This document shows positions 7,277 to 20,253 of a DNA stretch of 64,000 nucleotides, one piece after another. The stretch is from Candidatus Bruticola sp. (GTDB taxonomy: Bacteria > Vulcanimicrobiota > Xenobia > Xenobiales > Xenobiaceae). Below the pieces are notes generated by a model. That model did not search any database and was not told the origin of the DNA. It saw only the letters and a program-made list of their open reading frames with translations. The stretch is taken from contig JBJEGD010000022.1 of assembly GCA_051874735.1 (NCBI GenBank), positions 402 through 64,401 on the forward strand, written 5' to 3'. Numbering within the stretch: position 1 is the stretch's first letter; every line of letters begins with the position of its first letter. The position numbers and the translations under genes were made by a program.

Positions 7277-7765
7277 TTATCTACGTTCAGCTATAGCACG
7301 TTCTATATCGCGTTTGGCTGTTTTTGCTGCCTCTGCTTCGCGCTTATCATATAATTTTTTGCCCCTAGATAAGGCTATTTCTACTTTTATATAGTTCTTC
7401 TTAAAGTACAGCTTAGTAGGAATAATAGTTAAACCTTTTTCATGAGTACGGGCCTTAAGACGACGAATTTCACTTTTATTCAGTAACAGACGGCGCGATC
7501 TTAAGGGATCGTGGTTGAAACAGCTTGCATAATGCCATTTACTGATATTTAATCCTTTGAGCCACACTTGACTGAAGTCATCTACCACAACATAGGCATC
7601 TACCAAACTTAACCGCCCCTCTCTCAGAGACTTAACTTCAGTACCTTGCAGAGATATACCCGCTTCAAAAAATTCTTCGAAGATATATTCATGACGGGCC
7701 TGTCTATTGACCGCAATAACTTTGACAGCAGAATCTGTTTTTTGTTTACTTTGCTTCTTTGCCAT
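7277..7765 (-). CDS. smpB: SsrA-binding protein SmpB
   Basis: Motifs NRQARHEY, EAGISLQGTEVKSLR, RRLLLNKSEI and GKKLYDKRE. Confidence 0.98.
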   Translation of the reverse strand: MAKKQSKQKTDSAVKVIAVNRQARHEYIFEEFFEAGISLQGTEVKSLREGRLSLVDAYVVVDDFSQVWLKGLNISKWHYASCFNHDPLRSRRLLLNKSEIRRLKARTHEKGLTIIPTKLYFKKNYIKVEIALSRGKKLYDKREAEAAKTAKRDIERAIAERR

Positions 7766-8414
7766 TTTCTTCCACCCTGGAGATATCGTGGGAACTGAGG
7801 GGAGCTAACTGCGGGTAAAGTTTGCTATATTTTTCAGCATTATTCAAGACCTTTTTTACAAAAAAACGAGTCTCTGATACAGGGATATCGTTAATTGTGA
7901 GCGGCTTTTGCCGTTTCTCTATCCAAGAATCCACTTCATGCTGACCGGCATTATAAGCGGCTAAAGCTTCGATACTTTTATTATCGAAGCGTTTCAATAG
8001 CCAAGATAAATAGTAAGCACCTAAATATATATTTAGTTCAGGTTCTCTCAACCGGCTATTACTGCGCTCTTTTACGTGTATGCTGTGCGACTCTGCTATC
8101 CACCAAGCAGTATCAGGCATTAACTGCATCAACCCCTGCGCTCCCACTTCAGATTGGGCCTCCGTATTAAAACTGCTTTCAGCTAAAATAACCCCGGCAA
8201 CTAAATAGGGACTGACTTCAGCACTGCGAGAAGCGGCCACAATAGTTCCTTCATAATGCAAAGGATATAAAAAATATTCGATCCGAGCCCATGTAGCCCC
8301 CAAAGACAGAACAAAAACTGAAATACAGAAAAAAAAACAAACTAACAAATGTGTTAGGCTTATCTTTCTATACTGTCCCTGACCGTGCCGATTCTTATTG
8401 AGTTCAAACTCCAT
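7746..8414 (-). CDS. Membrane-anchored lytic transglycosylase (SLT domain)
   Basis: N-terminal TM helix; ILAESSF (catalytic Glu), GAQGLMQLMPDTA and ALAAYNAG motifs; follows coaE. Start is uncertain (8414 or 8450). Confidence 0.9.
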   Translation of the reverse strand: MEFELNKNRHGQGQYRKISLTHLLVCFFFCISVFVLSLGATWARIEYFLYPLHYEGTIVAASRSAEVSPYLVAGVILAESSFNTEAQSEVGAQGLMQLMPDTAWWIAESHSIHVKERSNSRLREPELNIYLGAYYLSWLLKRFDNKSIEALAAYNAGQHEVDSWIEKRQKPLTINDIPVSETRFFVKKVLNNAEKYSKLYPQLAPLSSHDISRVEENGKEAK

Positions 8415-9057
8415 AAAGATGTGCGAACCTTTCTTGCCAAACATCCTCAATTTGACGACGTAGAGCCTTCAAACTGCCGTTGTTATCTATAAGAATTGTC
8501 GCCCGCTCCGCTTTAGCAGCCAAGCTCATTTGCGAGGCCACTCGATTCTTAGCTTCAAAAATAGTTAAATGATCCCGGCTCATCAAACGCTTTAATTGCC
8601 GGTCAGGATTTATATCAATGACTAGTACACCAGCGCAGGCAGCTTCTGCCCCATGTTCAAACAACAAAGGAGCCATAATAAATACTAAGGGATACTTCAA
8701 TCTAGCCTGAGCAGTCAACTCAAAAGTGCGCTTCCAAATAGCCGGATGAACTATCTCATTCAAAGTTTGCAATTTATCGGGATCAGCAAAAACTATTCTA
8801 CCCAAATACGATCGGCGCAGTTCTCCTGCTTTGTCTAAAATACCAGATCCGAATTCATCAACCAATCGGCTAACTAAAGGCGATCCACTCCCCATTAACT
8901 CGCGGCTAATTAAATCACAGTCGATAATATGTGCACCTAAATGGCGCAGATATTCCGCAGCTGTAGATTTACCGCAGGCTATCCCACCGGTCAATCCCCA
9001 TACGAGACCAGCTGTTCTCTTCTGTTTGTTAATCATATTAAACGCCAATAATCTCAC
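8404..9057 (-). CDS. coaE: Dephospho-CoA kinase
   Basis: GLTGGIACGKST P-loop, LNEIVHP and PLLFE motifs. Start may be 9036. Confidence 0.96.
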   Translation of the reverse strand: MRLLAFNMINKQKRTAGLVWGLTGGIACGKSTAAEYLRHLGAHIIDCDLISRELMGSGSPLVSRLVDEFGSGILDKAGELRRSYLGRIVFADPDKLQTLNEIVHPAIWKRTFELTAQARLKYPLVFIMAPLLFEHGAEAACAGVLVIDINPDRQLKRLMSRDHLTIFEAKNRVASQMSLAAKAERATILIDNNGSLKALRRQIEDVWQERFAHLYGV

Positions 9058-9203: not shown

Positions 9204-10469
9204 CTAAGCTTCTTCATTCTTAGTGATGTCGTTCAGTTTCTCTTTGCCCATTTTGGAGGCTAAGATCTCACCAATGGAGTTGCCACTTCCACGCTCATCG
9301 TGGGAAACGCGTCTGCTGCTGTTGTTCTCGGTAGAACGGGCAGCGGGCTGCTGAAGACGCTTGATAGACAAGGTCATACGGCGTTTTTCGCGATCGAGGT
9401 CGATAATCTCAGCTTCAACTTCCTGTTCGGGCTTAAGGACGTCGGAAGGACGATTTACGTGAGAACGATCCATCTCGCTGACAGGGATAAGCCCCTCTAC
9501 ACCAGGCATAACCTCAATGAAAGCATACTTACTGGCTAAGCGAGTGATGCGGCCCTTCACTATATCGCCTACTTTGTGTTTGTCACAAGCCATTAACCAA
9601 GGATCAGGAGCGGCTTGACGCAAAGATAAGGAAATACGATTAAGTTCAGGATCGACCTTCAAAACGAGAACATCAACCTGCTGACCGGGCTGTACCACGT
9701 CGGCAGGCTGCTTGATGCGGCTCCAGGAAAGCTCGGAGATGTGAACGAGTCCATCCACACCGCCTAAATTAACGAAAGCACCGAAAGGAGTCAAGCGAGC
9801 TACGGTACCACTGACGATACTACCCTCAGTCAGCTTCTTCATAGTCTCTTCTTTGCTCTTGCGGCGGATTTCCTCTTCAGCCTTCTTGCGAGAGAGCACA
9901 ACCTTGCGGCGGCTCTTATCGACTTCGAGAACCTTGAGATTAAGCTCTTCGCCGATGAACTCGGAAAGATCACGAACAGGACGAACGTCGGCGTGCGAGG
10001 CGGGCACGAAACCGCGAATGCCTACGTCGACAATCAAGCCGCCCTTAACCTGCTCAGTACAGGTAGCGGTGATAATCTTGCCCTCTTCCATGGCTTCCAA
10101 GATATCTCTCCAAGCCTTCTCATTATCAGCACGGCGCTTGGAAAGGATCAGATTTCCCTCAGACTCATCAACTTTTTGTACTACAACGTTGATTTTATCT
10201 CCGACCTTGACAACATCCATAGGGGATACGTCGGGGGCGTTGGATACCTGATTGGCGGGAATAAAACCGTCGGTCTTGTAACCTACGTCAACATAAACAC
10301 CGTCGTTATCGACGCGAATGACCTTACCCTCAAGGAAATCATCCTTGGAGATAGGCTTTACATTCTTTTCGTACTCTTCAAGAGCCTGAGCCATATCTTG
10401 GCAGTTCTCTTCGTTAGTTACACTATTCTCTCCAGCGGCTGAAGTGGTAGGTTGAGTCTTGTCGTCCAT
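9204..10469 (-). CDS. rpsA: 30S ribosomal protein S1 (short four-S1-domain type)
   Basis: S1 repeats (VYVDVGYKTDGFIP, RGFVPASH, FGAFVNLGGVDGLVHISELSW, EGLIPVSEM). Start moved to ATG 10469, which has an AAGGGAG RBS upstream. Confidence 0.95.
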   Translation of the reverse strand: MDDKTQPTTSAAGENSVTNEENCQDMAQALEEYEKNVKPISKDDFLEGKVIRVDNDGVYVDVGYKTDGFIPANQVSNAPDVSPMDVVKVGDKINVVVQKVDESEGNLILSKRRADNEKAWRDILEAMEEGKIITATCTEQVKGGLIVDVGIRGFVPASHADVRPVRDLSEFIGEELNLKVLEVDKSRRKVVLSRKKAEEEIRRKSKEETMKKLTEGSIVSGTVARLTPFGAFVNLGGVDGLVHISELSWSRIKQPADVVQPGQQVDVLVLKVDPELNRISLSLRQAAPDPWLMACDKHKVGDIVKGRITRLASKYAFIEVMPGVEGLIPVSEMDRSHVNRPSDVLKPEQEVEAEIIDLDREKRRMTLSIKRLQQPAARSTENNSSRRVSHDERGSGNSIGEILASKMGKEKLNDITKNEEA

Positions 10470-10792
10470 TGTCGTATGTAGCTCCCTTAAATAACCGTTC
10501 ACTCTAACCGCAAAACCCATAAAGATCTTTCGGCTAAATTCCTGGTTCAACCACTTAGGCTGCGCACATTCTACCCAAAAGAATCGTAAGAAGAGCGTCA
10601 AATCCATAGTGTCCGCAGGCGTATATTCGGGGGTGAACAACACCCTATTGTAAAGACACCTATTGTCGGGCGTCCCCAAAAACCGGCGGCACTCAGCAGC
10701 CGGAGCAGTCTGCTCTTTAGAACTGCTCCTGAAACTTCATAAAACAGATAATCTGAGCAGCATCTTGCAAACTTACTTATTACCGCGAAAAG

Positions 10793-10852: not shown

Positions 10853-10885
10853 TATGGTCTGAAGTCCCATAGACTTCAGACCGTA
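10853..10885 (-). terminator. Hairpin after the polA-like gene
   Basis: 14-bp near-perfect stem tatggtctgaagtc/gacttcagaccgta with an A-rich flank. Confidence 0.65.
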
Positions 10886-10924: not shown

Positions 10925-13645
10925 TTAATGAATGCGGTATTCTACACTAAGCGGGACCCCGCCCGCAGCTTCTAGACAAAGCTGGCGGCACTTCTCTGCT
11001 ATTTCATTTTCACGTCCAACCGGCGCATGAACTATAATCATATTTTTACAACACATTGCATATACTTCAGTGCCGAAATTTTCAAAAATTTTTACCAGAG
11101 CTGACCGCACAATATCCATGCATCCGCCTTCTATGGGGAAAGCTCTGGCAAAGCGCTCAGCATTTTCACGAACGTTGTAATTGCGACTTCCAGCTTCGAC
11201 TATACGGCAAACGCGCCCGGACAGAGTGCTGATCTCTTCCATAGCTGTAGCTTTAGCCTGATTGCGCAAAATAAAATTCCAGCTTACAGGGTAAGACTCC
11301 GCAAAGGCACTATCAAACTTATTTAAATATTCCGAAGCTCTCTGGAGACTATCCTCCCCTTCCAATCCTAAACGCCTGGCTAACCAAGCTGGACTAAAGT
11401 AGAACAGTAGCATACTCACAAAGAGATAGCGCACAGAAATACAACTGTTGAGATCGCTGCCAAAAACTTTCTTCATCAGTTCTATCTCTATATCCCGACC
11501 GCTTTGTAAGTCATCAGCTAAAGCCTTGTCCTTAGCTAAATACGCCAAAAAGCGCAACCCCATAGCTGGGAATCTAAGATAAATTAAAAGAGAATTGCCC
11601 TTAGGACGCAAAAAATCATCCATAGCTTTAGCTAAAGTACGGCGAACTGGAACACAGGCCAAGTTATCGATTACGGCCATCATATGTTCCATTAATTCGA
11701 TAATACCGCGCGCCGAAACACGACCCAAAATTTGCAGACGGCGCTCACTGACCAAGGCTAAATTAAACAGATGGCCCCCAATTTTGATCTCCGTCTTCCC
11801 CTCAACCATAAACTTTTGTACAAAGGTGCGCCTGAACTCGGAAAGTTCGCAGTAACAGCGTATTTTTTCCACAATAGGGTTCTGGTCTTGCAACGATTTT
11901 AGCATTTCTGCATTGAGCATAGAACCATTCTTAGGACGCGTAGGAACTAATAGAGCTAGATGATCGAATAGGTAACGACTTAGTTCTTCTTCAGAGTCAA
12001 GATCGAATTCAGGTACATCAGCCTCTGCAAAGAAACTATCACGCGCTTCTTGAAGTTTATTATCAATAAAATCAATAATTTTTTTCGTAAGTTCTTTATC
12101 GCAGCCTAAACCAAAATTGTTGAGTAGCCAATTCATTTTAGCCCAAGGCAACTCGATCGTTTCATATATTTGAACTAGATGCTTAGACTCTATTCTAGAG
12201 TACATCTTTTCACCCAAGGCGATTAGAACATCGGCTATGCGAGCGGTCCAACAGATGCGTCCGCGCATAGGCACATCTGCTAAAACTCCGTGTGCTAAGC
12301 CTAAAATTAAGTTGCGATCGTAAATAGCAAAACCGTAACGGGCACAAATCGATTCAATAGAATGTTCCCAAACATTGAGATCTAAAAGTGATGAGAAGAG
12401 CAAAACGTCTCTGACATTATTCATTTCAGCTTTGTTCTTCATGATTTCATGAATGCCGACTACGTATTTGGCCCGCTTACCGTCACTGAAAATAGGACGT
12501 AGCTTAGCCCATAGTTCTTCTATATCAGGAGCTTTTTCTTCAATAGGCACCTCAATATGCCAACTGGAAAGATCGATATAGACGGGATGTTCTCCCTTGA
12601 GACAGATGGACAGTCCCCAAGGAGCTTTTGTTTTATCGTTCTGGAACCAAACAAAAGCTACATCGGCAGATGAATTTTGAACTTTATCTAAAAATTCGAG
12701 GACCTTCTGGCTAGGCAAAGCACTTTCGGGAATAGCGCATGGAGACTCAACAGCCACATCTTTGTCCATAGCACGCAGAAAGACCTCAGCCCCTTCTAAA
12801 TGGATCTGCTCAAAGATACGTTTGGTCATCTGCACAGGGAAACCTTTGAATTCGCATTCATTCCAATTTATATCTAAAGGCAGATCGCGGCGTATAGTAG
12901 AACGGGACAAGAATTCGAAGGCGTCGTCTCTATTTTCAGAAAGAGGATTGCGCCACTTGGCTGGCAGATGTTCTAAAGAATCGAATAATTCAGTTAAACT
13001 GTTATACTGAGACAGAAGACGCCGAGCTGTTACTTCGCCTATACCTGGAACCCCACCGATATTTTGACTGGAATCACCTGCTAACGCACGTAAATCGGCC
13101 AGCTGTCCAGGGTGTAATCCGTATTTTTTCACCACGAGATCTTCATCGAAAATAACGGAATCAACAATACCGCGCCTCATAGTCATAACTTTTATATGAG
13201 GGGAAACCAGCTGCATCAGCCCTAAGTCGCCGGAGACTATTAAAGTTTCAAAACCGTCACAGTTGGCTTTAGCAGCCAAAGTGCCGATACAGTCATCGGC
13301 TTCAAAACCAGGCAAACGATAAGCTTTTATACCGCAAATATGCACAAAATCTTCAATAATGGGCAGCTGCAGTTCAAAATCGTCCAGCATTTCTCCGCGC
13401 TGTACGTTATAGGTTTGGAACTTCATCAGTGTATCTACCAAAGCTCCGTGATCAAAAGCAACAGCTACATGGGTAGGACGCTCCGATACTATAGTGTTAA
13501 TAACTAGGTTTATGAATCCTAGAATAGCATTAAGCGGAAAACCAAGCTCAGATTTGCGAGCCGGAAGAGCATAAAAAGCCCTGTAAGCCAATCCATTGCC
13601 ATCTATGAGCAATATTTTTTTTGTGTTATTACTTTTACTATTCAC
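10925..13645 (-). CDS. polA: DNA polymerase I homologue with a degenerate polymerase domain
   Basis: 5'-3' exonuclease motifs LIDGNGLAYRAFYA, EADDCIGT and GVPGIGE. The C-terminal part aligns to PolA (TLSGR, AERFARAFPIEGG) but motifs A, B and C lack catalytic residues. The symbol denotes family only. Confidence 0.85.
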   Translation of the reverse strand: MNSKSNNTKKILLIDGNGLAYRAFYALPARKSELGFPLNAILGFINLVINTIVSERPTHVAVAFDHGALVDTLMKFQTYNVQRGEMLDDFELQLPIIEDFVHICGIKAYRLPGFEADDCIGTLAAKANCDGFETLIVSGDLGLMQLVSPHIKVMTMRRGIVDSVIFDEDLVVKKYGLHPGQLADLRALAGDSSQNIGGVPGIGEVTARRLLSQYNSLTELFDSLEHLPAKWRNPLSENRDDAFEFLSRSTIRRDLPLDINWNECEFKGFPVQMTKRIFEQIHLEGAEVFLRAMDKDVAVESPCAIPESALPSQKVLEFLDKVQNSSADVAFVWFQNDKTKAPWGLSICLKGEHPVYIDLSSWHIEVPIEEKAPDIEELWAKLRPIFSDGKRAKYVVGIHEIMKNKAEMNNVRDVLLFSSLLDLNVWEHSIESICARYGFAIYDRNLILGLAHGVLADVPMRGRICWTARIADVLIALGEKMYSRIESKHLVQIYETIELPWAKMNWLLNNFGLGCDKELTKKIIDFIDNKLQEARDSFFAEADVPEFDLDSEEELSRYLFDHLALLVPTRPKNGSMLNAEMLKSLQDQNPIVEKIRCYCELSEFRRTFVQKFMVEGKTEIKIGGHLFNLALVSERRLQILGRVSARGIIELMEHMMAVIDNLACVPVRRTLAKAMDDFLRPKGNSLLIYLRFPAMGLRFLAYLAKDKALADDLQSGRDIEIELMKKVFGSDLNSCISVRYLFVSMLLFYFSPAWLARRLGLEGEDSLQRASEYLNKFDSAFAESYPVSWNFILRNQAKATAMEEISTLSGRVCRIVEAGSRNYNVRENAERFARAFPIEGGCMDIVRSALVKIFENFGTEVYAMCCKNMIIVHAPVGRENEIAEKCRQLCLEAAGGVPLSVEYRIH

Positions 13646-13936: not shown

Positions 13937-15265
13937 TCAAGTCATAGATATCAGAAGTCCAGCGACAGTAAAATAAACTATCAATCCGGTGACATCGACA
14001 ACTGTAGCTACAAATGGAGCAGAAGCGCTAGCAGGGTCCAGTTTGCACAAACGAAGCAAAAAAGGCAACATAGAGCCGGCTAAACACCCTAGAGTAACCA
14101 CTCCCAGTAGCGAACAGGCCACAGTCAATCCAAGAAGCATAGGAGAATCACCGTAGATACCGGGATAAAGATACGCCCAAAGCATGACACGAATCATGCC
14201 AACAATGCCTAACAAAATCCCAATAACTACTCCAGCTCCAATCTCCCTAGTCAAAACACTAAACCAATCGCGCATTTTAACTTCACCCATAGCCATAGCC
14301 CGTACCATAAGGGTAGAAGCCTGAGAGCCAGAATTCCCGCCACTGGAAATAATCAAAGGTACAAAAACTGCCAAATACCAAACGGCATCTAACTGTTTTT
14401 CGTATCTGGCCATAGCCGAAGCGGTCAACATTTCGCCGATTAATAATAGCACAAGCCATCCTGCACGCTTCTGAATCAGTTCAATGAAACCAGTACGCAG
14501 ATAGGACTCGTCTAAGGCCTCCATACCACCGTATTTTTGAGCATCTTCAGTACCTTCTTCGCGGATCACTTCTACAACATCATCAGCAGTAATAAGTCCC
14601 TTCATGCAGCCCCGATTATCTACTACTGGCATAGCAGTCAAACTGTAACGGGCAAATAAAGTTCCGACTTCTTCCTGATCCATATCTTCAGGACAAGTTA
14701 CGACATCTTTATCAGCCAGATCGACCACTAAATCGTCAGAGTCCGCCGCCAAAAGAGCATTTATGCCAACTTCACCTATAAGACGCTGCTCGCTGTCCAA
14801 TACATATACATGTTCTAAAGATATGCACTCTTGAGCTTGTATATGCAAATAATTAATAGCGGACTCTACAGTCATAGTAGAACGGACTCTGGCAAAGCGG
14901 GGGTTCATCAAACCTCCAGCATCATCTTCTGCATAGGCCAAAAGAGCACTTACTTTGTCACGCGCTCTAGTGTCGAGAAGTTCCAACCATTCTGCAGCTT
15001 CATCTTCTGGCAGTTCTGAAAGGATATCAGCTATATCGTCGAGATCCAAATAACGCAGCCACGAGCGCCTCTCCGGCAAACTCATAGACTGCAACAAATC
15101 TGCCTGATCGTTGACATTCATGCAATCTAAGAGATCTTCAGCCTCCCCTAGCGGCAGAGTGCGAAAAAGCTCGATGCGTCTTTCGCTCCCTAGACGAGGC
15201 CAATCACTTAGAGTCTGCTCGAACTGTTCTTGTCTCTCCATTTTTTCAGAGTTAGAATCTGCCAC
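13937..15265 (-). CDS. mgtE: Magnesium transporter MgtE
   Basis: Acidic N-domain, CBS pair (AGGLMN), and TM motifs GGNSGSQ and DPASASAPFVATVVDVTGL. Confidence 0.96.
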   Translation of the reverse strand: MADSNSEKMERQEQFEQTLSDWPRLGSERRIELFRTLPLGEAEDLLDCMNVNDQADLLQSMSLPERRSWLRYLDLDDIADILSELPEDEAAEWLELLDTRARDKVSALLAYAEDDAGGLMNPRFARVRSTMTVESAINYLHIQAQECISLEHVYVLDSEQRLIGEVGINALLAADSDDLVVDLADKDVVTCPEDMDQEEVGTLFARYSLTAMPVVDNRGCMKGLITADDVVEVIREEGTEDAQKYGGMEALDESYLRTGFIELIQKRAGWLVLLLIGEMLTASAMARYEKQLDAVWYLAVFVPLIISSGGNSGSQASTLMVRAMAMGEVKMRDWFSVLTREIGAGVVIGILLGIVGMIRVMLWAYLYPGIYGDSPMLLGLTVACSLLGVVTLGCLAGSMLPFLLRLCKLDPASASAPFVATVVDVTGLIVYFTVAGLLISMT

Positions 15266-15268
15266 TGT

Positions 15269-16891
15269 TTACTTGCCTTGTTCTGAAGCAGTTTGGGAGG
15301 CTTCACTTCTTGAAGCGGTGACGGTATCTAACTTTTCGCAAGCCTTAATCCAGTCATAACGCGGATCCTGAGCCAGATTAGCTTCAGTACCATCAGCTAA
15401 ACGTACAAAATAGCCTCCCTGTCCATCCTCATAAATATGGATATCAGCTGCTGGAGCAGTTTCAGAGTCACTGTCAGTGTACAGCTTGTAAGAAGCGATT
15501 TCCTTACTTTGTACATTTTTGTTTACCTTAGAATCAGACAGCTTTTCTTTCCACTGTAAGTCGATCAAATTGTAGAGAAGCCCGTCGGCTATTTCCAGCT
15601 TTTTGCCCTCATTTTCAATAGAAGGAGAGGGCTGGAGAATATTCCACCCGCTCTTAGATCGCTCAGCTACCACCTTATAAGCTCCGCCACTACGTTTGGC
15701 AGGTACCACAACTTCAAACCGCTGAACTTCATTCAACGACATGGAGACCACATGACGATCCACAAATTCAGAGCTGCGCCTGCCCACTAGGAGCTTCATA
15801 ACTTCTTCTAAGCTGGAACACTCTAACTGTAGTCTCTCATCTGGATTCGTACGGGAGGCATAAATAAGATTATTCTCACGAGGAACAGGCTGAGCAAATT
15901 CATAAATGAACGGCTCTTTCTTACCTTCAATTTCGACGGTCAAGCGCGCGTTTACTTTAAAAGGCGTAAGATCATCGTGATAAAGAAACTTTTTAATCTT
16001 CAAGTCTTGAAGAGCCCAGGCGAAAGTGTTACACAAGCGAGTATCGGCCAAAACCTCCTGTTCCCCATTTATCTGGGGATCAGATACATACCACTTAGCC
16101 TCTTTGAGATCGACGCTTTCGTCCATTTCATTTTCAAAACTGCCGTTGTCAGACTGAGATTTTTTATCTCCCCAACCTAAGAAAGAAGACTTCTTTTTTT
16201 CTTCAACTTTAGATTCATTTTTTACTTTAAGCGTAAACGAACTGTGAGGCAGAGAACTATCGCACGATTCATAACGAATAGTACGAATTTTATCTGGCGA
16301 GAAAGCGAACAAATTATGCTCGCGCAGATCGTCTATTAAAGACATAAAAACGGTAATAAAACCTCCAGGCACGGCCAGCACAGGGGCTTGACCTCCGGTA
16401 GTATCTAACCGAGCATAAGATCCACTATCGTCAATAAGCATATTGCCCAAAAGCAAGGTCGCTTTGGCAACTTGACCATTTGGTTCAGCATACTCTACAA
16501 CAAAACGATGTAAAGGTTTATCCAAGCCGTACTGGGCCAAAGATGAAGCTGTAGGATTCTCTACAATAACTTCTTGACGACTCAAATTAGCGACAGTTTC
16601 AGCCAAATCTTTAAGTTGGGCTCCATCAGCCCTAACCTTATATTCCCCCAGTTCAATAGTCCAGCCCACATCCTGACGCACAAAACGACGCACCGTATCA
16701 GGATTAGCAGCGCCATCTGACCAAACCATAGCTTTTATATCTTTGCTTTCAAATTGGGGAAAAACACGGCTAGATAAGCGCTGTTCTTCTCTGCTCTTTT
16801 CAGAACCGCGTATATCATGGAAGTACCAAAATCCGCCCAATAGTATGACTACTATGAGCATTGTGACTACGCTTCGCATATTTTTTTCCAA
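15269..16891 (-). CDS. DUF4340-like exported protein
   Basis: N-terminal anchor, LAQYGLDKP motif, and position downstream of the GldG-like gene. Confidence 0.75.
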   Translation of the reverse strand: MEKNMRSVVTMLIVVILLGGFWYFHDIRGSEKSREEQRLSSRVFPQFESKDIKAMVWSDGAANPDTVRRFVRQDVGWTIELGEYKVRADGAQLKDLAETVANLSRQEVIVENPTASSLAQYGLDKPLHRFVVEYAEPNGQVAKATLLLGNMLIDDSGSYARLDTTGGQAPVLAVPGGFITVFMSLIDDLREHNLFAFSPDKIRTIRYESCDSSLPHSSFTLKVKNESKVEEKKKSSFLGWGDKKSQSDNGSFENEMDESVDLKEAKWYVSDPQINGEQEVLADTRLCNTFAWALQDLKIKKFLYHDDLTPFKVNARLTVEIEGKKEPFIYEFAQPVPRENNLIYASRTNPDERLQLECSSLEEVMKLLVGRRSSEFVDRHVVSMSLNEVQRFEVVVPAKRSGGAYKVVAERSKSGWNILQPSPSIENEGKKLEIADGLLYNLIDLQWKEKLSDSKVNKNVQSKEIASYKLYTDSDSETAPAADIHIYEDGQGGYFVRLADGTEANLAQDPRYDWIKACEKLDTVTASRSEASQTASEQGK

Positions 16892-16897
16892 TCTCAG

Positions 16898-18385
16898 CTA
16901 ATTTTCTCTACCTTTGACCACGGCTAAACCGTAGAAGAAAACGAAACCGGGAATTAACAGGCATAATATAGCTGCCAAGGTCCAGTAAGTTTTCTGAGAA
17001 AGCATCAAAGGCTCGCTGTTTTCATCTTTGGGACGAATAGCCGCAGTGTCGTTACTCCCTCCCAACCAAGAGAACATGTTCATAACCAAATCTTTATTAG
17101 TGAACTGACTAGCGTCAAAAAGTTCATTAGAGAGGAAATCAGCATCACCAGAGAAAATGGCGCGGCATTTCTTTATACGAGATTCTTTGCCCTGTTCAGC
17201 TTTAGGATTATTCTGAGCCGCCTCTCGAGCTAATTCTGCCTTACTTTTGGACACAGAACGCTCAACAGTCTGAATGATAGGCAGCTCCTCGCCCTGACGA
17301 ACAGGAGTCAAGCGTCCACCTTGGCTGCTTTGCAAATTACTTATATCACAAGCCAAAGCTGCGACGTCGCTACTAATCAGTACATTTCTATCTAAAGTAG
17401 GATTTTTATTGCCTTTATTCTGCTCAATCGGACGGATCGTTTTGAAAATACAAGGCAGGCGCATGCCTTTTGTTATAGGATTAGTGAAGCTAAAGACATC
17501 AGTCATCACAAAAATTGGTTCTAAATTGGTGCCCATCTGAGCCATTTTAGGATCTATTACGAGCAAATCGCTAAGCTGCAGACCATAGATGGAGAACAGC
17601 CAATCGTAACCTTTGGGGGTATCCATTTCAGCAGCGAATAAGAGATTGCCGCCGGCATTAAGCCAACTAGATAAAGCTTTCTTTTCATTATCCAAAAGAG
17701 ATACTTTAGGAGCTATAATAGCCAAATTGGAAACCCCTGAAGGAATCTCCTTAGCGTACTTGCCCAGCTTAAGTTCTTCAACATTGTATCCTTCAGCAAG
17801 AAGACTCTTCTTAAGCTTGGAAATCGAAATCACATCTTTATCAAAACCTCGTTCGCCATGACCCTGCAAGAAGTGAATAGTACTCTTATTCTCATCAGTC
17901 ATAGAAATGATCAGACTGGTAACGCCCTCTTCACTGACGTCATAGAGCTTTTCATTCTTGTCATTGTAAACGGCTACTATGTCGCCAACGGCTTTAGCGC
18001 CTTTCTTCTGAGCTTCTATGGGATTTTTACGAGGATCAACGAAAGTATAATTTACATTTCCGTTGCTAATAATTTTGTAGTTGCGAAGTACACTGTCAAT
18101 GCGTGCATGTTCTTCATCGTTAGAATCGGAAATAAAAATGTAAAAATTGATTGGACTTTTTAGTTTTTTAACCGTTTCGACACTAAACGGCGACAAAGTG
18201 AAGCGTTTTTGAGAAGTTAAATCGTAAGTAAAAATATTATTGTTGGATACAACCAACACGAGCATCAGGGCGACTACTGCTAAAAGAACAGCAGCTGCTC
18301 CCTGCATGGCTAAATTCAGCTTATAGTTGTCGTTGCTGTCGCTGGTCTGCTTAGAAGTAGATCCTTCAGTAATTCTTTCGCTCAT
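16898..18385 (-). CDS. GldG-like ABC auxiliary protein
   Basis: DLTSQKRFTLS, FLQGHGE and GDADFLSN motifs; TM helices at both ends. Confidence 0.88.
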   Translation of the reverse strand: MSERITEGSTSKQTSDSNDNYKLNLAMQGAAAVLLAVVALMLVLVVSNNNIFTYDLTSQKRFTLSPFSVETVKKLKSPINFYIFISDSNDEEHARIDSVLRNYKIISNGNVNYTFVDPRKNPIEAQKKGAKAVGDIVAVYNDKNEKLYDVSEEGVTSLIISMTDENKSTIHFLQGHGERGFDKDVISISKLKKSLLAEGYNVEELKLGKYAKEIPSGVSNLAIIAPKVSLLDNEKKALSSWLNAGGNLLFAAEMDTPKGYDWLFSIYGLQLSDLLVIDPKMAQMGTNLEPIFVMTDVFSFTNPITKGMRLPCIFKTIRPIEQNKGNKNPTLDRNVLISSDVAALACDISNLQSSQGGRLTPVRQGEELPIIQTVERSVSKSKAELAREAAQNNPKAEQGKESRIKKCRAIFSGDADFLSNELFDASQFTNKDLVMNMFSWLGGSNDTAAIRPKDENSEPLMLSQKTYWTLAAILCLLIPGFVFFYGLAVVKGREN

Positions 18386-18391
18386 ATCAGC

Positions 18392-19138
18392 TTAACCTTT
18401 CCATTTGCGGCTTTCTAAAAAGCGCACCGTCAAAAACAAGAAAAAGGCGATCAGGGCAAGATAGTAAACTATATCCTGACTATTCAGCACGCCTTTAGCT
18501 AAATTCTCAATGTGACCAAAAATCGAAAGCGGACCAAAAGACTTAGTGTATTCAGCATTTTTATCAGGTATAGCCAAGAACCAGAGGCAGAGCAACAAAC
18601 CGTAATTAAAGGCAGCTGCCGTCAGCTGGCTGTTAGTAACACTGGAAGTAAAAATTCCCATAGCCGACATAGCCCCAGCCATCAATAACAAGGCCAGATA
18701 CCCACTCAGAAGAACCATCCACTCAATAGTGCAATTGACACTCAAATAGAAGAAAGTCAGTGAAGACAGAGCTAACATAATGGAAACTACAACCATAACG
18801 GCAAAAAACTTACCCCAAACGATCTGCCATTCAGAAATAGGATAAGTAAAGAGCAAATCTAAAGTACCTGAACGTTTGTCTTCAGAGAAGGAACGCATAG
18901 TGAGCAGAGGCAGGAAAAACATCATCATAACCCCTACGCTCTGCACCATGGGAGGCACGAAATAAGTATTTATATTGCACGGCATGCCGCCCTGCATAGC
19001 CGAAGCAGACATATCAGCATAAGCCCCCACCCCCAATAGCATAAACATGCCGATAATAAATGCAAAAGCGGCAATAAGTGACCAGGCCAAGAGCGAACCA
19101 AAGTAGGCCTTCATTTCACGATAAAAAATTGCGCCCAT
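18392..19138 (-). CDS. GldF-like ABC-2 permease
   Basis: REMKAYF and PLLTMRSFSEDKRSGTLDLLFT motifs; multiple TM helices. Confidence 0.9.
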   Translation of the reverse strand: MGAIFYREMKAYFGSLLAWSLIAAFAFIIGMFMLLGVGAYADMSASAMQGGMPCNINTYFVPPMVQSVGVMMMFFLPLLTMRSFSEDKRSGTLDLLFTYPISEWQIVWGKFFAVMVVVSIMLALSSLTFFYLSVNCTIEWMVLLSGYLALLLMAGAMSAMGIFTSSVTNSQLTAAAFNYGLLLCLWFLAIPDKNAEYTKSFGPLSIFGHIENLAKGVLNSQDIVYYLALIAFFLFLTVRFLESRKWKG

Positions 19139-20253
19139 TACTTCTCTTCCTCTTCTTTTTTCTCTGTATCAAGTGAATCTGCAGATGACGTCTGGGCTGC
19201 TGTCTCCTCAGGTGCCCTGCTTTCTACAGTAGATTCTGCTTTATTTGCATTTACAGAAGCACTGCTGTTCTCTTTTTCATACTCGCGAACTAAATTAATG
19301 AAAACATCTTCTAAAGAGATGCGCTCATCTTGGATACCGTAAACTTCCCACTTTTTGCTATTCATTACGTGGTTAATTTCGCGACGTACTGTCAGACTGT
19401 CCTTAGGAGCTTCAACAGTAAAAGTAAGCAAAGGATATTTTGAGTTGGCAATATTTTCACCGCCGCAGCTCACCACATTGCTTACACAATCTAACCCTTT
19501 AAGTACTTCCAAAACTTCATTTTGTGATGGAGCCAAAATTTGGATCTTCAATCCAATATTTTTTTGAACTCTGCTTTCCAAATTAGCCGGGGTATCAGCC
19601 GCGACTAAATTACCATGATCTAAAATGCAAACCTTATTGCAAGTCAAAGATACTTCAGACAATATATGAGTAGAGAGAATTATAGTTGATTGACCGGCTA
19701 AGCTAATAATAAGCTCGCGAAAATTTTTAATTTGCTCCGGATCCAAACCTACAGTAGGTTCATCGAGAATAAGTACTGGCGGCTCATTAATGATAGCTTG
19801 AGCTAGACCGACCCTCTGACGATATCCCCGAGAGACGGTGCGGATCAGTTGGTTAGCCACATTCTCTAGGCTACAGCGCTCCAACGTTTTCTTGATAGCT
19901 TTATCTATATCAAGATGGGCCATACCTTTAGTACGAGCGACAAAATTAAGGTATTCAGTTACCGTCATATCAAGGTAAACTGGAACATTCTCCGGCATAA
20001 AACCTATGGAACGGCGCACTCCTAAACTATCAGTCATTACATCGAAGCCATTGACAACAGCTGTTCCCATAGTAGGCGGATAAAAACAAGTCAGCATTTT
20101 CATCGTAGTAGTTTTACCGGCGGCATTCGGTCCTAAGAAGCCCAGAATTTCGCCTTTTTCTACATTAAAAGAAACCTTATTGACAGCAGTCCGCTTGCCG
20201 AACATTTTAGTCAGGCCTTTAGCCTTTATCATGAAATCTTTAGATTCTGTCAT
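19138..20253 (-). CDS. GldA-like ABC transporter ATP-binding protein
   Basis: Walker A GPNAAGKTT, signature VSRGYRQR, Walker B LILDEPT. Confidence 0.94.
   Translation of the reverse strand: MTESKDFMIKAKGLTKMFGKRTAVNKVSFNVEKGEILGFLGPNAAGKTTTMKMLTCFYPPTMGTAVVNGFDVMTDSLGVRRSIGFMPENVPVYLDMTVTEYLNFVARTKGMAHLDIDKAIKKTLERCSLENVANQLIRTVSRGYRQRVGLAQAIINEPPVLILDEPTVGLDPEQIKNFRELIISLAGQSTIILSTHILSEVSLTCNKVCILDHGNLVAADTPANLESRVQKNIGLKIQILAPSQNEVLEVLKGLDCVSNVVSCGGENIANSKYPLLTFTVEAPKDSLTVRREINHVMNSKKWEVYGIQDERISLEDVFINLVREYEKENSSASVNANKAESTVESRAPEETAAQTSSADSLDTEKKEEEEK

Follow-up and report, generated by a model that had tools for sequence, protein, structure and literature searches.

Can a bacterial lineage keep a full-length DNA polymerase I whose polymerase active site has been destroyed and, if so, what might the protein be kept for? 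This question is raised by a polA-like gene in 64,000 nucleotides of DNA (the window, meaning the whole stretch that was analysed) from Candidatus Bruticola sp., a gut member of the poorly known phylum Vulcanimicrobiota (also Eremiobacterota). A sequence-only reading had described the gene product as a Pol I homologue that appeared catalytically dead, and proposed that it was either a repurposed non-catalytic Pol I or the mark of a lineage that manages without Pol I synthesis. All genomes compared here are metagenome-assembled; that of the window (G000) is 92% complete, in 42 contigs.

Gene architecture and predicted fold

10925..13645, minus strand: polA-like gene with FEN, exonuclease-like and putatively dead polymerase domains (906-aa ORF, Pfam, NCBIfam, structure model)
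12842..13618, minus strand: 5' nuclease (FEN) domain, residues 10-268 (PF02739, PF01367; mapping to E. coli Pol I and Xni)
12086..12778, minus strand: middle 3'-5' exonuclease-like domain, residues about 290-520 (alignment with E. coli Pol I)
10982..12085, minus strand: family A polymerase domain, residues 521-888, apparently catalytically dead, folded and constrained (PF00476, dN/dS, Foldseek)
10853..10885, minus strand: terminator-like hairpin of 12-14 bp with a T run (consensus scan only), immediately past the polA stop codon

The intact 906-aa frame reported earlier was borne out: it opens with GTG, has no internal stops and ends in a stop codon at 10925-10927. The hairpin next to it comes from a promoter and terminator scan in which site counts for the region were no greater than in shuffled sequence. 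Pfam recognised both parts of the 5' nuclease in the window protein (5_3_exonuc_N, residues 10-176, 139.9 bits; 5_3_exonuc, residues 178-268, 75.6 bits), and DNA_pol_A (PF00476) scored only 99.4 bits over residues 521-888. The NCBIfam Pol I equivalogs remained below their cut-offs (NF004397, 382.7 against 720 bits; TIGR00593, 357 against 600), the best stretch spanning residues 9-613 only. The predicted structure reached a pLDDT of 90.5 and a pTM of 0.89, and its top Foldseek match was the full-length mycobacterial Pol1 (6vde_A, E 4e-36; 4.5e-66 for the match by sequence). Foldseek gave 6vde_A, 1taq and Klenow a probability of 1.00 each; Taq and Klenow ranked next after 6vde_A at TMt about 0.7, and Klenow, Bst and KlenTaq aligned to the model at TMt 0.65-0.71. 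Judging from the model, we are confident that the window protein retains the whole Pol I fold and its three-domain architecture.

The polymerase active site

The motifs were placed by three independent alignments: HMMER against Taq and M. smegmatis Pol1, MAFFT of 49 PolA-type proteins, and MAFFT with E. coli K-12 Pol I. The 49 rows comprise 34 dead-type and 15 canonical rows from relatives; they omit two duplicates of the window gene (L001, L002), an ORF split in two (L010), a partial sequence (L029) and a solo FEN (L003). The dead-type genes of G002, G014, G015 and G017 lie outside the alignments and were classed by their PF00476 score. Every motif string quoted in the sequence-only reading was found in the window protein, opposite the canonical motifs in all three alignments.

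11552..11590, minus strand: motif A remnant LLIYLRFPAMGLR, residues 686-698 (HMMER and MAFFT alignments)
11399..11437, minus strand: motif B (O-helix) remnant SVRYLFVSMLLFY, residues 737-749 (HMMER and MAFFT alignments)
11036..11059, minus strand: motif C remnant AMCCKNMI, residues 863-870 (HMMER and MAFFT alignments)
11681..11734, minus strand: 18-residue insertion, residues 638-655, between the Arg of 'GRL' and the 'NLQ' remnant (MAFFT alignment)

In motif A (LRFPAMGLR), E. coli D705 and E710 are replaced by R691 and G696, and the Asp of this column was found in 0/34 dead-type rows vs 15/15 canonical rows. Motif B retains R754 (as R739), K758 and Y766 have become V743 and F748, and F762 falls within a 3-4-residue deletion of the O-helix. 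None of the 34 dead-type rows carries the Lys and only one carries the Tyr, each of which is present in 15/15 canonical rows. The H881-D882-E883 of motif C reads K867-N868-M869; at the Asp position, Asp persists in 20/34 dead-type rows and Asn occurs in 14/34, the whole genus of the window among them. Acidic residues were looked for by alignment at the motif A and C positions of the window protein, where Arg, Gly, Asn and Met stand instead. The earlier claim of a dead site is thus upheld by the replacement of catalytic and dNTP-binding residues in the alignments with E. coli, Taq and Pol1, and the polymerase site is dead on all sequence criteria. The substitution pattern recurs in 34 orthologues, which places it far beyond chance.

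The described erosion of GRLSSxxPNLQN stands in part. The strings do differ, but the Arg is retained (R636, E. coli R668) and is followed by the 18-residue insertion before '..DNLA'. This insertion was present in 34/34 dead-type and 0/15 canonical rows, as well as in 8/8 dead-type library representatives and 0/31 of the canonical representatives checked, and across these comparisons it is a signature of the dead clade. The DNA-contact Arg residues were retained in the dead-type rows (R668 and R841 in 34/34 each, R682 in 33/34), and the thumb motif 'RPKNG' was invariant in alignment A1.

Graded intermediates were also observed, f2 and f3 retaining the Asp-Glu of motif C and f10 the Asp of motif A. 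The dead-type motif A of f1g3/g5 reads 'LEYDQLELR', with Glu at the catalytic position and Asp two residues on.

The 5' nuclease and the middle domain

The replacements reported for the 5' nuclease were confirmed by alignment (E. coli K78 to N80, D140 to G142, D188 to Q194). The carboxylates D15, D65, E115, D117, D118, D140 and D191 are retained (E. coli D13, D63, E113, D115, D116, D138 and D185); 6/8 metal-binding FEN carboxylates are present, and the equivalents of D148 and D208 in M. smegmatis FenA are G142 and Q194. It is correct, then, that two acidic ligands have been replaced, but both belong to the third-metal site and the M1/M2 carboxylates are invariant clade-wide. Among alignable rows, D63, D115, D116 and D138 were conserved in 33/33 each, D185 in 34/34 and D13 in 24/24. 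The only ligands to vary across the clade were those at the D140 position (Asp in 21 rows, Gly in 11, Glu in 2) and the D188 position (Gln in 15, Asp in 13, Glu in 6), and the K78 equivalent was Asn in 33/34 dead-type rows. The H3TH 'GVPGIG' is intact in the window protein, and 'GVPGIGEVTA' is invariant across the clade.

At the D140 position E. coli Xni shares the Gly of the window protein, and both D185 and D188 are absent from it. The available text of PMC5934675 describes this enzyme (ExoIX) as a two-metal FEN that relies on M1 and M2, without an M3 site. Since the lost ligands are those of the third metal only, the Gly is Xni-like and the M1/M2 set is invariant, the 5' nuclease of the window protein is more likely active than inactive. 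Between f3 genomes, compared over the same pairs, FEN identity was 68-80% for the dead copy vs 54-61% for the active copy, and polymerase-domain identity was 46-57% vs 55-65%. The middle domain lacks the proofreading carboxylates (the D355/E357 region is gapped, D424 is I401 and D501 is I470), which are also absent from the relatives' active PolAs.

Selection, phylogeny and locus

NG86 dN/dS was estimated for 12 pairs within the genus, of which the nine with finite values in all three domains were used; WIN-G004, WIN-G005 and G005-G004, which involve distant genomes, were dropped because one or more domains gave a saturated or undefined dS. The ratio was 0.019-0.049 for the polymerase domain, far from 1, 0.009-0.021 for the FEN domain and 0.046-0.088 for the middle domain, several of the remaining pairs having dS >1.5 and being indicative only. 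In the pair G004-G001, for example, dN was 0.021 and dS 0.646 over the polymerase domain. Strong purifying selection acts on each of the three domains. Every relative has an intact frame, the close ones showing neither frameshifts nor stops, and dead-type orthologues were recovered from 40 further genomes and from 8 independent 50%-identity clusters of a library of 1.84 billion proteins.

The dead form made up one clade of 34 sequences from an order of the class Xenobia (SH-aLRT 98). This clade was sister to the active PolA of G040, from a neighbouring family (SH-aLRT 96), a result that was repeated with 43 rows.

The genes around the locus were as follows.

9204..10679, minus strand: rpsA, ribosomal protein S1, downstream neighbour (four S1 domains)
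8404..9057, minus strand: coaE, dephospho-CoA kinase (PF01121, 184 bits; synteny)
7746..8450, minus strand: SLT-domain lytic transglycosylase (PF01464; synteny)
13937..15265, minus strand: mgtE, Mg2+ transporter, upstream neighbour (PF01769, PF03448, CBS)

The gene had been placed near coaE-SLT, by comparison with Firmicutes. Both genes do adjoin the locus, but the S1 gene lies between polA and coaE; the host is a member of Vulcanimicrobiota and not of Firmicutes. The polA-S1-coaE gene order is typical of Actinobacteria. The order polA-S1-coaE-SLT was found beside the dead copy in 4/4 genomes of the order examined (G028, G024, G022 and G023) and not beside the active extra PolA copies; upstream, the order ABC-aux, DUF4340, MgtE, polA is also present in G013. 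By tree and synteny, the window gene is orthologous to polA in both position and descent, and the dead form is order-wide, old and vertically inherited rather than peculiar to the window genome. We rejected the idea that the dead copy is a paralogue duplicated within f3, as it occupies the ancestral locus and belongs to the native lineage, the active 'type-2' copy grouping elsewhere.

Other polymerases and nucleases

The PF00476 search of the window genome gave a single match, the window gene, and tblastn with five canonical PolAs found only this gene and a solo FEN, which has all acidic motifs. Dead-type PolA is the only form in the genomes of the window family (f1, 18/18) and of f2 (5/5); f3 has a fully active PolA alongside the dead copy. 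With no other family A polymerase in the genome or the family, synthesis by Pol I would not be available to this lineage, as the second of the two early proposals had it. The solo FEN was present in 18/18 window-family genomes and in all 41 genomes, G040 included, a distribution on which we rejected its being the remnant of a truncated second PolA.

The window genome also encodes one DnaE and an archaeal-type PolB with intact motifs. Apart from the dead PolA, PolB was the only non-C-family polymerase found in the genus, DnaE being the other polymerase; the PolX search included here had a weak positive control, with no control genome scoring above the cut-off. The PolB motifs DxxSLYPS, KxxxNSxYG and DTD were intact in 12/12 orthologues checked, and the nearest solved relatives are the archaeal Pfu/KOD-type enzymes. 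At the PolB C-terminus, where a conserved clamp-binding motif was looked for, only an 'LYKKF'-like stretch was conserved. PolB was found in 9/10 genomes of the genus and not in G009 (92% complete); in the genus f3g8 the dead copy is present and PolB was found in 0/6 genomes.

In a sample of 81 genomes of the phylum, PolB occurred in 22/23 genomes with only an eroded PolA vs 11/58 with a canonical PolA, some of these classes being set by PF00476 bit score and not by motif inspection. A second clade of eroded PolA, also accompanied by PolB, is probably of independent origin: in the AU test, a common origin of all eroded PolAs was disfavoured only marginally (p 0.039), for a group named after the tree had been seen. 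The link between PolB and eroded PolA is a correlation among relatives that amounts to about two evolutionary events.

Comparison with known systems

The window protein resembles Pol I of E. coli, Taq and M. smegmatis (Pol1) in its three-domain architecture, its fold, its polA-rpsA-coaE slot, its descent within the lineage of the phylum's active PolA, and its conserved DNA-contact Arg residues and FEN core. However, it is without the motif A Asp, the motif B Lys, Phe and Tyr and the motif C Asp and Glu, has the 18-residue insertion, and reaches only about half of the NCBIfam equivalog cut-offs. With E. coli Xni it shares the Gly at D140, the missing Asp at D188, the lack of a full third-metal site and the retained M1/M2 ligands. 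Xni, however, is a 251-aa stand-alone protein that lacks D185 and retains the Lys of YK, whereas the window protein has D185 (as D191), Asn in place of the Lys, and a 620-aa Klenow-like body. Although the window protein is not a member of the Xni family (NF007017, 137.4 bits against a cut-off of 261; Klenow-like fusion), it may work like Xni.

Textbooks assign repair and Okazaki-maturation synthesis to Pol I. According to the available text of a survey (PMC12926913), about 96% of complete bacterial genomes have Pol I, and many Tenericutes and Verrucomicrobia have lost it and retain a solo 5'-3' exonuclease only. The same text presents the 5' nuclease, not the polymerase, as the near-universal requirement and, citing its ref. 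88, bacteria as viable without Pol I's polymerising activity given the 5'-3' exonuclease. Like these lineages, the one described here would dispense with synthesis by Pol I and retains a FEN-type nuclease; there, however, the polymerase domain was deleted, whereas here it is full length, predicted to be folded and under purifying selection, also in f2 genomes of 5-9 Mb. The polymerase pseudoenzymes mentioned in that text are ImuB, a dead Y-family member, and PolX1, with an inactivated polymerase site and a conserved PHP exonuclease (PMC12926913). As in these, the polymerase fold has outlived the catalytic residues and the associated nuclease is conserved more than the polymerase site, but they belong to other polymerase families with other nucleases, and the available text of the survey mentions no family A example.

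In B. subtilis, the discrete FEN is described as the main Okazaki nuclease and the FEN of Pol I as feeble, with E. coli xni no substitute, and a division of labour is proposed in which the polymerase extends and the discrete FEN cuts (PMC10191290, as far as its available text goes). A parallel with archaeal and eukaryotic Okazaki maturation by a family B polymerase and FEN1 may be drawn, as the genus has an archaeal-type PolB and FEN-type nucleases, although the latter are bacterial Pol I-type FENs and not FEN1. Our search of the openly accessible literature found no paper on a polymerase-dead Pol I. The available text of PMC12926913 and of the family A reclassification PMC10201439 describes no group of PolA1 whose polymerase site is inactivated, and mentions family A inactivity only for 3'-5' exonuclease domains.

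Possible function of the protein

A dead polymerase site under strong purifying selection points to a repurposed, non-polymerising Pol I rather than to a decaying gene, so that, for the polymerase function, the first of the early proposals is supported as well. The reading we favour, and consider rather probable, is that of a pseudo-polymerase that persists as a 5' nuclease able to bind DNA, PolB or DnaE having taken over synthesis. The polymerase active site would have been destroyed once, early in the clade of the Xenobia order, and the protein then kept. Its activity would be that of a structure-specific 5' nuclease whose two-metal site is Xni-like; at a nick, gap or flap junction the dead Klenow-like body would bind the 3' end and position the nuclease, in a mode that could be likened to nick translation without synthesis. 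Gaps would be filled by the archaeal-type PolB in the window family and f2, and by a second active PolA and/or PolB in f3, and the fully equipped solo FEN probably shares in primer removal. Because an intact solo FEN exists, the nuclease role of the window protein could be redundant, but the very strong constraint on it would then be unexplained.

More tentatively, and with the odds against it, PolB could have taken over Okazaki and repair synthesis, probably twice, and the dead Klenow-like body could have become an obligatory junction-recognition module for the 5' nuclease. If true, this would be a natural case in bacteria of lagging-strand finishing by PolB and FEN in the archaeal and eukaryotic style, and the first described family A pseudo-polymerase.

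The protein could instead be a wholly non-catalytic DNA-binding or scaffold factor that, for instance, marks nicks or flaps and recruits the solo FEN, PolB, ligase or the clamp, which we regard as unlikely but the most serious of the alternatives. The FEN domain has lost the conserved Lys and two of its eight carboxylates to replacement, and equivalent single mutations kill M. smegmatis FenA, where D148 and D208 are essential (Ala and Asn mutants keep <=0.1% activity) and K76 matters moderately; moreover, 18/18 family genomes have an intact solo FEN, and in B. subtilis it is the discrete FEN that does the main job. However, the M1/M2 core keeps its six carboxylates unchanged order-wide with dN/dS near 0.01, while the polymerase carboxylates drifted freely, which would be surprising if metal binding did not matter, and the example of Xni, a recognised two-metal enzyme, shows that a FEN can do without the M3 ligands.

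It is less probable still that the dead domain has gained a new activity or partner outside Okazaki maturation and repair, such as regulatory DNA or RNA binding or a role based on the insertion. The insertion lies beside the primer-terminus Arg in 34/34 dead-type and 0/15 canonical rows, the dN/dS of 0.02-0.05 is tighter than a mere spacer needs, and a dead copy beside a fully active PolA in f3 suggests a distinct job. Yet we identified no new constellation of conserved polar or catalytic residues, the invariant residues being the classical DNA contacts, and by its synteny and phylogeny the gene is an ordinary polA.

That polymerisation persists through migrated or non-canonical catalytic residues is very improbable. 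The motif C Asp-Glu of f2 and f3 and the Glu and Asp of 'LEYDQLELR' in f1g3/g5 would be compatible with it, but in the window protein Arg, Asn and Met take the place of the three carboxylates, the O-helix is 3-4 residues shorter and without Lys, Phe and Tyr, and both the motif A Asp and the motif B Lys are at 0/34. A decaying gene or an assembly artefact, which the very low Pfam and NCBIfam scores of the polymerase domain and the metagenomic origin of the genome might suggest, can practically be dismissed given the intact frame, the dN/dS of 0.02-0.05, the orthologues in 40 genomes and 8 clusters and the confident fold prediction.

Significance

A whole order, including free-living members with genomes of 5-9 Mb, appears to retain a full-length Pol I with a destroyed catalytic site and the rest strongly constrained. 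It would represent a natural separation-of-function allele, in which the Klenow body has a selectable role besides synthesis, be it to bind junctions, to position the 5' nuclease or to recruit partners. The lineage could serve as a testbed for whether a bacterial PolB can assume the synthesis job of Pol I, and the graded intermediates (f2/f3 and f10) may allow the path from essential enzyme to pseudoenzyme to be reconstructed. Automatic annotation labels the dead-type proteins 'DNA polymerase', and inventories of metabolism and replication for these lineages of gut and soil would thus be wrong on the point of Pol I.

A complete Pol I homologue with an inactivated polymerase site

The polA-like gene of the window, whose intact 906-codon frame had already been claimed from the sequence alone, and the domains of its product are as follows:

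10925-13645, minus strand: polA-like gene, one open frame with a GTG start
Residues 10-176: first half of the 5' nuclease (Pfam PF02739, 139.9 bits)
Residues 178-268: second half of the 5' nuclease (Pfam PF01367, 75.6 bits)
Residues 521-888: family A polymerase domain (Pfam PF00476, only 99.4 bits)

Against the NCBIfam Pol I equivalogs the protein scored 383 and 357 bits (cut-offs 720 and 600), the good match being limited to residues 9-613. Among proteins of solved structure it comes closest in sequence to full-length M. smegmatis Pol1 (6vde_A, E 4.5e-66) and to Taq polymerase. An alignment of 63 sequences gave an AlphaFold2 model of high confidence over its whole length (mean pLDDT 90.5, pTM 0.89), for which Foldseek returned full-length Pol1 (E 4e-36) and Taq, followed by the Klenow, Bst and KlenTaq large fragments, the latter three at a target-normalised TM of 0.65-0.71. 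The Pfam and sequence matches, the confident model and the Foldseek results together point to a complete Pol I-type protein that is predicted to be well folded.

The catalytic site was mapped by three independent and mutually agreeing alignments: HMMER to Taq and Pol1, MAFFT of 49 proteins of the PolA type encoded by related genomes, and MAFFT with E. coli K-12 Pol I (NC_000913). All three confirm the changes in motifs A, B and C described in the sequence-only reading, and in the alignment to E. coli and Taq Pol I no acidic residue stands at the positions of D705, D882 and E883, so that by alignment the polymerase site is predicted to be dead. Arginines that contact the primer/template are retained. 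The proofreading carboxylates are gone (D424 to I401, D501 to I470), as they equally are from the active PolAs of relatives in the alignment with E. coli Pol I. Three PolA types can be told apart among the 49 proteins, namely the dead type, which includes the window protein, and two active ones, type 2 (ADWSQIELR / AKTVNFATIYGQG / QIHDE) and type 1 (ADYSQIELR), the latter present in the related genomes G040, G039, G022 and G033.

Table. Polymerase residues in E. coli numbering; counts are for 34 dead-type and 15 canonical rows.
E. coli; window protein; dead type; canonical
D705; R691; R12, S11, E4, G4, A2, Y1 (Asp 0/34); Asp 15/15
K758; V743; Lys 0/34; Lys 15/15
Y766; F748; Tyr 1/34; Tyr 15/15
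H881-D882-E883; K867-N868-M869; at D882, Asp 20 (families f2 and f3, one genus of f1), Asn 14; at D882, Asp 15/15
R668 (primer/template); R636; Arg 34/34
R682 (primer/template); R668; Arg 33/34
R841 (primer/template); R831; Arg 34/34
E710; G696
R754; R739 (kept)
F762; within a 3-4-residue deletion
N845; A835
Q849; E839

Distribution and descent of the dead form

The window's genome (2.47 Mb, 42 contigs, 92% complete) is from Ca. Bruticola, placed by NCBI in Vulcanimicrobiota, class Ca. Xenobia. The database protein closest to its PolA is 88% identical over the polymerase part and is labelled Candidatus Bruticola sp.; a further match is labelled 'bacterium UBP9'. A PF00476 search covering 41 related genomes gave one weak match each (53-159 bits) in the 18/18 other genomes of the window's family (f1), one match each of about 245 bits in 5/5 genomes of f2 (5-9 Mb), and, in most of the 16 genomes of f3 (mostly 5-9.5 Mb), a canonical copy of 460-509 bits together with a weak copy of 161-222 bits; the one genome of f4 has the canonical copy only. 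A profile of 16 dead polymerase domains, searched against 1.84 billion representative proteins, ranked eight dead-type clusters first (589-316 bits), and the lower-scoring matches checked (P0039-P0069) were canonical in 31/31, from which the dead form appears to be a compact family restricted to one clade.

The large genomes of f3 carry up to three PolA-type genes (e.g. loci L004-L019, type 2; L012, G022:C3 and G033:C70, type-1-like). In these genomes the dead copy sits at the ancestral locus. An active copy, distinguished by the unusual motifs ADWSQIELR and NFATIYGQG, falls outside the phylum's native lineage, and the third gene, a further active copy, occurs in three genomes.

Maximum-likelihood analysis of the FEN domain (quick IQ-TREE, 62 rows, 278 columns) united all 34 dead-type rows in one clade (SH-aLRT 98), sister to the G040 active PolA (support 96), and the f3 active type-2 copies form a separate clade together with an unrelated outgroup protein; the placement of the dead clade was reproduced in a second tree of 43 rows. 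The gene order in the window is mgtE - polA - rpsA(S1) - coaE - SLT, and the proximity to coaE-SLT remarked on earlier is thus real, with the S1 gene standing between polA and coaE. The order polA-rpsA-coaE is that of Actinobacteria. S1, coaE and SLT follow the dead copy in 4/4 other genomes of the order examined (G028, G024, G022 and G023) and lie beside none of the type-2 and type-1-like copies at the loci examined; the G040 contig ends short of the side relevant to synteny. With one dead clade sister to the G040 active PolA, and synteny at the polA locus, the window gene is the native polA, descended vertically at that locus, and not a stray paralogue.

A consensus scan picked out a GC-containing hairpin of 12-14 bp with T runs on both strands at 10853-10885, after the polA stop and ahead of the S1 gene, which suggests that polA may be transcribed separately from rpsA-coaE. 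Upstream of mgtE, at 15269-20253 on the minus strand, a DUF4340 protein, an ABC_transp_aux/DUF7088 protein, an ABC-2 permease and an ABC ATPase make up a predicted GldG-like auxiliary ABC system; part of the window order (ABC-aux, DUF4340, MgtE, polA) is kept in G013. The coaE and SLT frames as listed share 47 bases (8404-8450), and their GTG and TTG starts, picked mechanically, may be too far upstream.

The 5' nuclease and the 18-residue insertion

The window nuclease keeps D13, D63, E113, D115, D116, D138 and D185 of E. coli Pol I (as D15, D65, E115, D117, D118, D140 and D191) and carries the substitutions D140 to G142, D188 to Q194 and K78 to N80, the first two being the loss of two acidic ligands that had been read from its altered motifs. 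For FenA, the M. smegmatis FEN, passages of PMC5934675 describe three metals (M1-M3) bound by eight carboxylates, mutants of D148 (M2 and M3) and D208 (M3; M2 via water) with at most 0.1% activity, and 18-35% activity left in K76A. The window protein is missing precisely the counterparts of D148 and D208, together with that of the Lys, which argues for a crippled nuclease. The main rival explanation holds that the nuclease too has lost its activity, leaving a protein that serves purely as a scaffold at DNA junctions. Counter-evidence to a living nuclease also comes from B. subtilis, where, in passages of PMC10191290, a discrete FEN is the chief Okazaki nuclease, the FEN of Pol I itself is feeble, and xni does not substitute.

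On the other side stands E. coli ExoIX (Xni), a stand-alone FEN without an M3 site that functions on M1 and M2 (same passages of PMC5934675). Xni aligns a Gly at the D140 position, as does the window protein, but lacks both D185 and D188, whereas the window protein retains the former. Throughout the dead clade the M1/M2 ligands are invariant (D63, D115, D116 and D138 in 33/33 rows each, D185 in 34/34), D13 is kept in the 24/24 rows having the N-terminus, and only two M3-type positions drift (D140: D21, G11, E2; D188: Q15, D13, E6). The polymerase carboxylates of these proteins, unlike the M1/M2 nuclease ligands, have drifted freely. From within the data, this difference is the strongest sign that selection still acts on metal-dependent chemistry in the nuclease. 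We hold with moderate confidence that the window nuclease is an Xni-like two-metal FEN, and consider the pure scaffold unlikely.

The GRLSS..PNLQN segment, described earlier as eroded, is indeed changed, but by an 18-residue insertion (residues 638-655) directly after the R668 equivalent, which is itself kept. A new function built on this insertion is a less probable explanation still. Residual activity of a polymerase site so altered is very unlikely.

Selection on the dead PolA

Pairwise Nei-Gojobori comparison among nine genomes of the window's genus gave dN/dS of 0.019-0.049 for the polymerase domain, 0.009-0.021 for the FEN domain and 0.046-0.088 for the middle domain, with 3/12 pairs saturated and unusable and several others at dS >1.5; in the least saturated pair (G004-G001) the polymerase domain has dN 0.021 and dS 0.646. 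The dead PolA is under strong purifying selection and is maintained, not decaying. Values so far below 1 do not bear out the neutral decay considered in the sequence-only reading, and decay or artefact is the least credible explanation of all.

In f3 genomes carrying both copies, compared over the same genome pairs, FEN domain identity is 68-80% for the dead and 54-61% for the active copy, whereas polymerase domain identity is 46-57% and 55-65%, respectively, and this contrast places the centre of selection on the dead protein at its nuclease. The polymerase body is clearly constrained too.

Other replication enzymes and the association with PolB

A tblastn search of the window's genome with five canonical PolAs returned nothing beyond the dead PolA and a solo FEN; there is no other PolA in this genome. 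The solo FEN, its second PF02739 match, has 290 aa, lies on contig C31 and bears all acidic motifs (VD, FE, YKANR, EADD, DKD, GDASDN), so that, of the second polA or stand-alone FEN envisaged earlier, only the FEN was found, and it is intact. Exactly one solo FEN accompanies the dead PolA in each f1 genome (18/18), and f2 genomes have two each. The window's genome also encodes one DnaE (1190-aa frame), RNase HI and RNase HII. A Y-family polymerase is absent from it and from 10/10 genus genomes, and the PolX palm domain was not found in 10/10 genus genomes by a search with a weak control. A family B polymerase is present in 9/10 genus genomes; that of the window's genome has 772 aa, with DVQSLYPS, KILINSFYGYLG and YDTDG intact, and among proteins of known structure it is closest to archaeal enzymes of the Pfu/KOD type (88 bits).

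On contig C42, outside the window (L055:1270-1872, minus strand), an ORF of 200 aa, flanked by a proB-like gene (AA_kinase and PUA) and dnaE, aligns weakly (32.5 bits) with positions 1-90 of PF07733, the Pol III alpha domain. A weak PF07733 match upstream of dnaE recurs in 8/10 genus genomes, and the product seems to be a small conserved protein resembling a fragment of DnaE.

Of the 41 relatives, those of f1 (17/18, in addition to the window's genome), f2 (5/5) and the f3 genera g7 (8/8) and g9 (2/2) have PolB, which is absent from f3 genus g8 (0/6) and f4 (0/1). PolB and/or an active PolA occur in 39/40 genomes with a dead PolA, the exception being G009 (92% complete). In the rest of an 81-genome sample of the phylum a single canonical PolA (>465 bits) is found almost everywhere. 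In four genomes from other families, G055 (383 bits) and G045 (367) in f10, G059 (294) in f16 and G050 (280) in f15, the sole PolA has a reduced score and is eroded differently, with nuclease motifs fully intact and without the 18-residue insertion (loci L075-L078):

G050: motif A FEYPYLDIQ, motif C TGNI
G059: motif A FAFFQLDIL, motif C YGHE
G055: motif A FEFSHLEHR, motif C IHNS

Erosion is mildest in G045, where D705 and K758 are kept, Y766 is N and D882 is E; judging by these residues its PolA may still be active, and may represent an intermediate. These four PolAs form their own clade (SH-aLRT 100), separate from the dead clade, and a single origin of the eroded PolAs is disfavoured only marginally (AU test p 0.039, for a group defined after the tree was seen). 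The same PolB is present in 4/4 of these genomes, and its motifs are intact in 12/12 orthologues checked. Over the 81-genome sample PolB occurs in 22/23 genomes with an eroded PolA only vs 11/58 with a canonical PolA, a tally of related genomes that amounts to roughly two events and in which unaligned genomes were classed by PF00476 score.

A possible role and its precedents

The alignments show DNA-binding and nuclease cores of the dead PolA that appear intact, and the window's genome encodes PolB, DnaE and a solo FEN. At a nicked, gapped or flapped junction the Klenow-like body would bind the 3' end, and the two-metal nuclease would cut the 5' RNA/DNA flap lying downstream; the short stretch to be synthesised, a few nucleotides, would come from PolB or DnaE and, in f3, also from the active PolA. 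Such a mechanism would agree with a finding quoted in a passage of a 2026 survey, that the polymerase of Pol I is dispensable in bacteria whereas a 5'-3' exonuclease is not (PMC12926913).

Other passages of that survey describe loss of the whole polymerase domain, with solo FENs, in Tenericutes and Verrucomicrobia, and dead polymerases in other families, namely ImuB and a PolX1 with an inactive polymerase site and a conserved PHP nuclease. Neither passages of the survey and of the family A reclassification (PMC10201439) nor full-text search of non-subscription articles yielded an account of a full-length Pol I orthologue whose polymerase site is inactivated. Since only domain loss and dead polymerases of other families were found described in these sources, the case would be new as a family A pseudo-polymerase. 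We read the window protein as such a pseudo-polymerase, clade-wide and under selection, and probably coupled to replacement by PolB.
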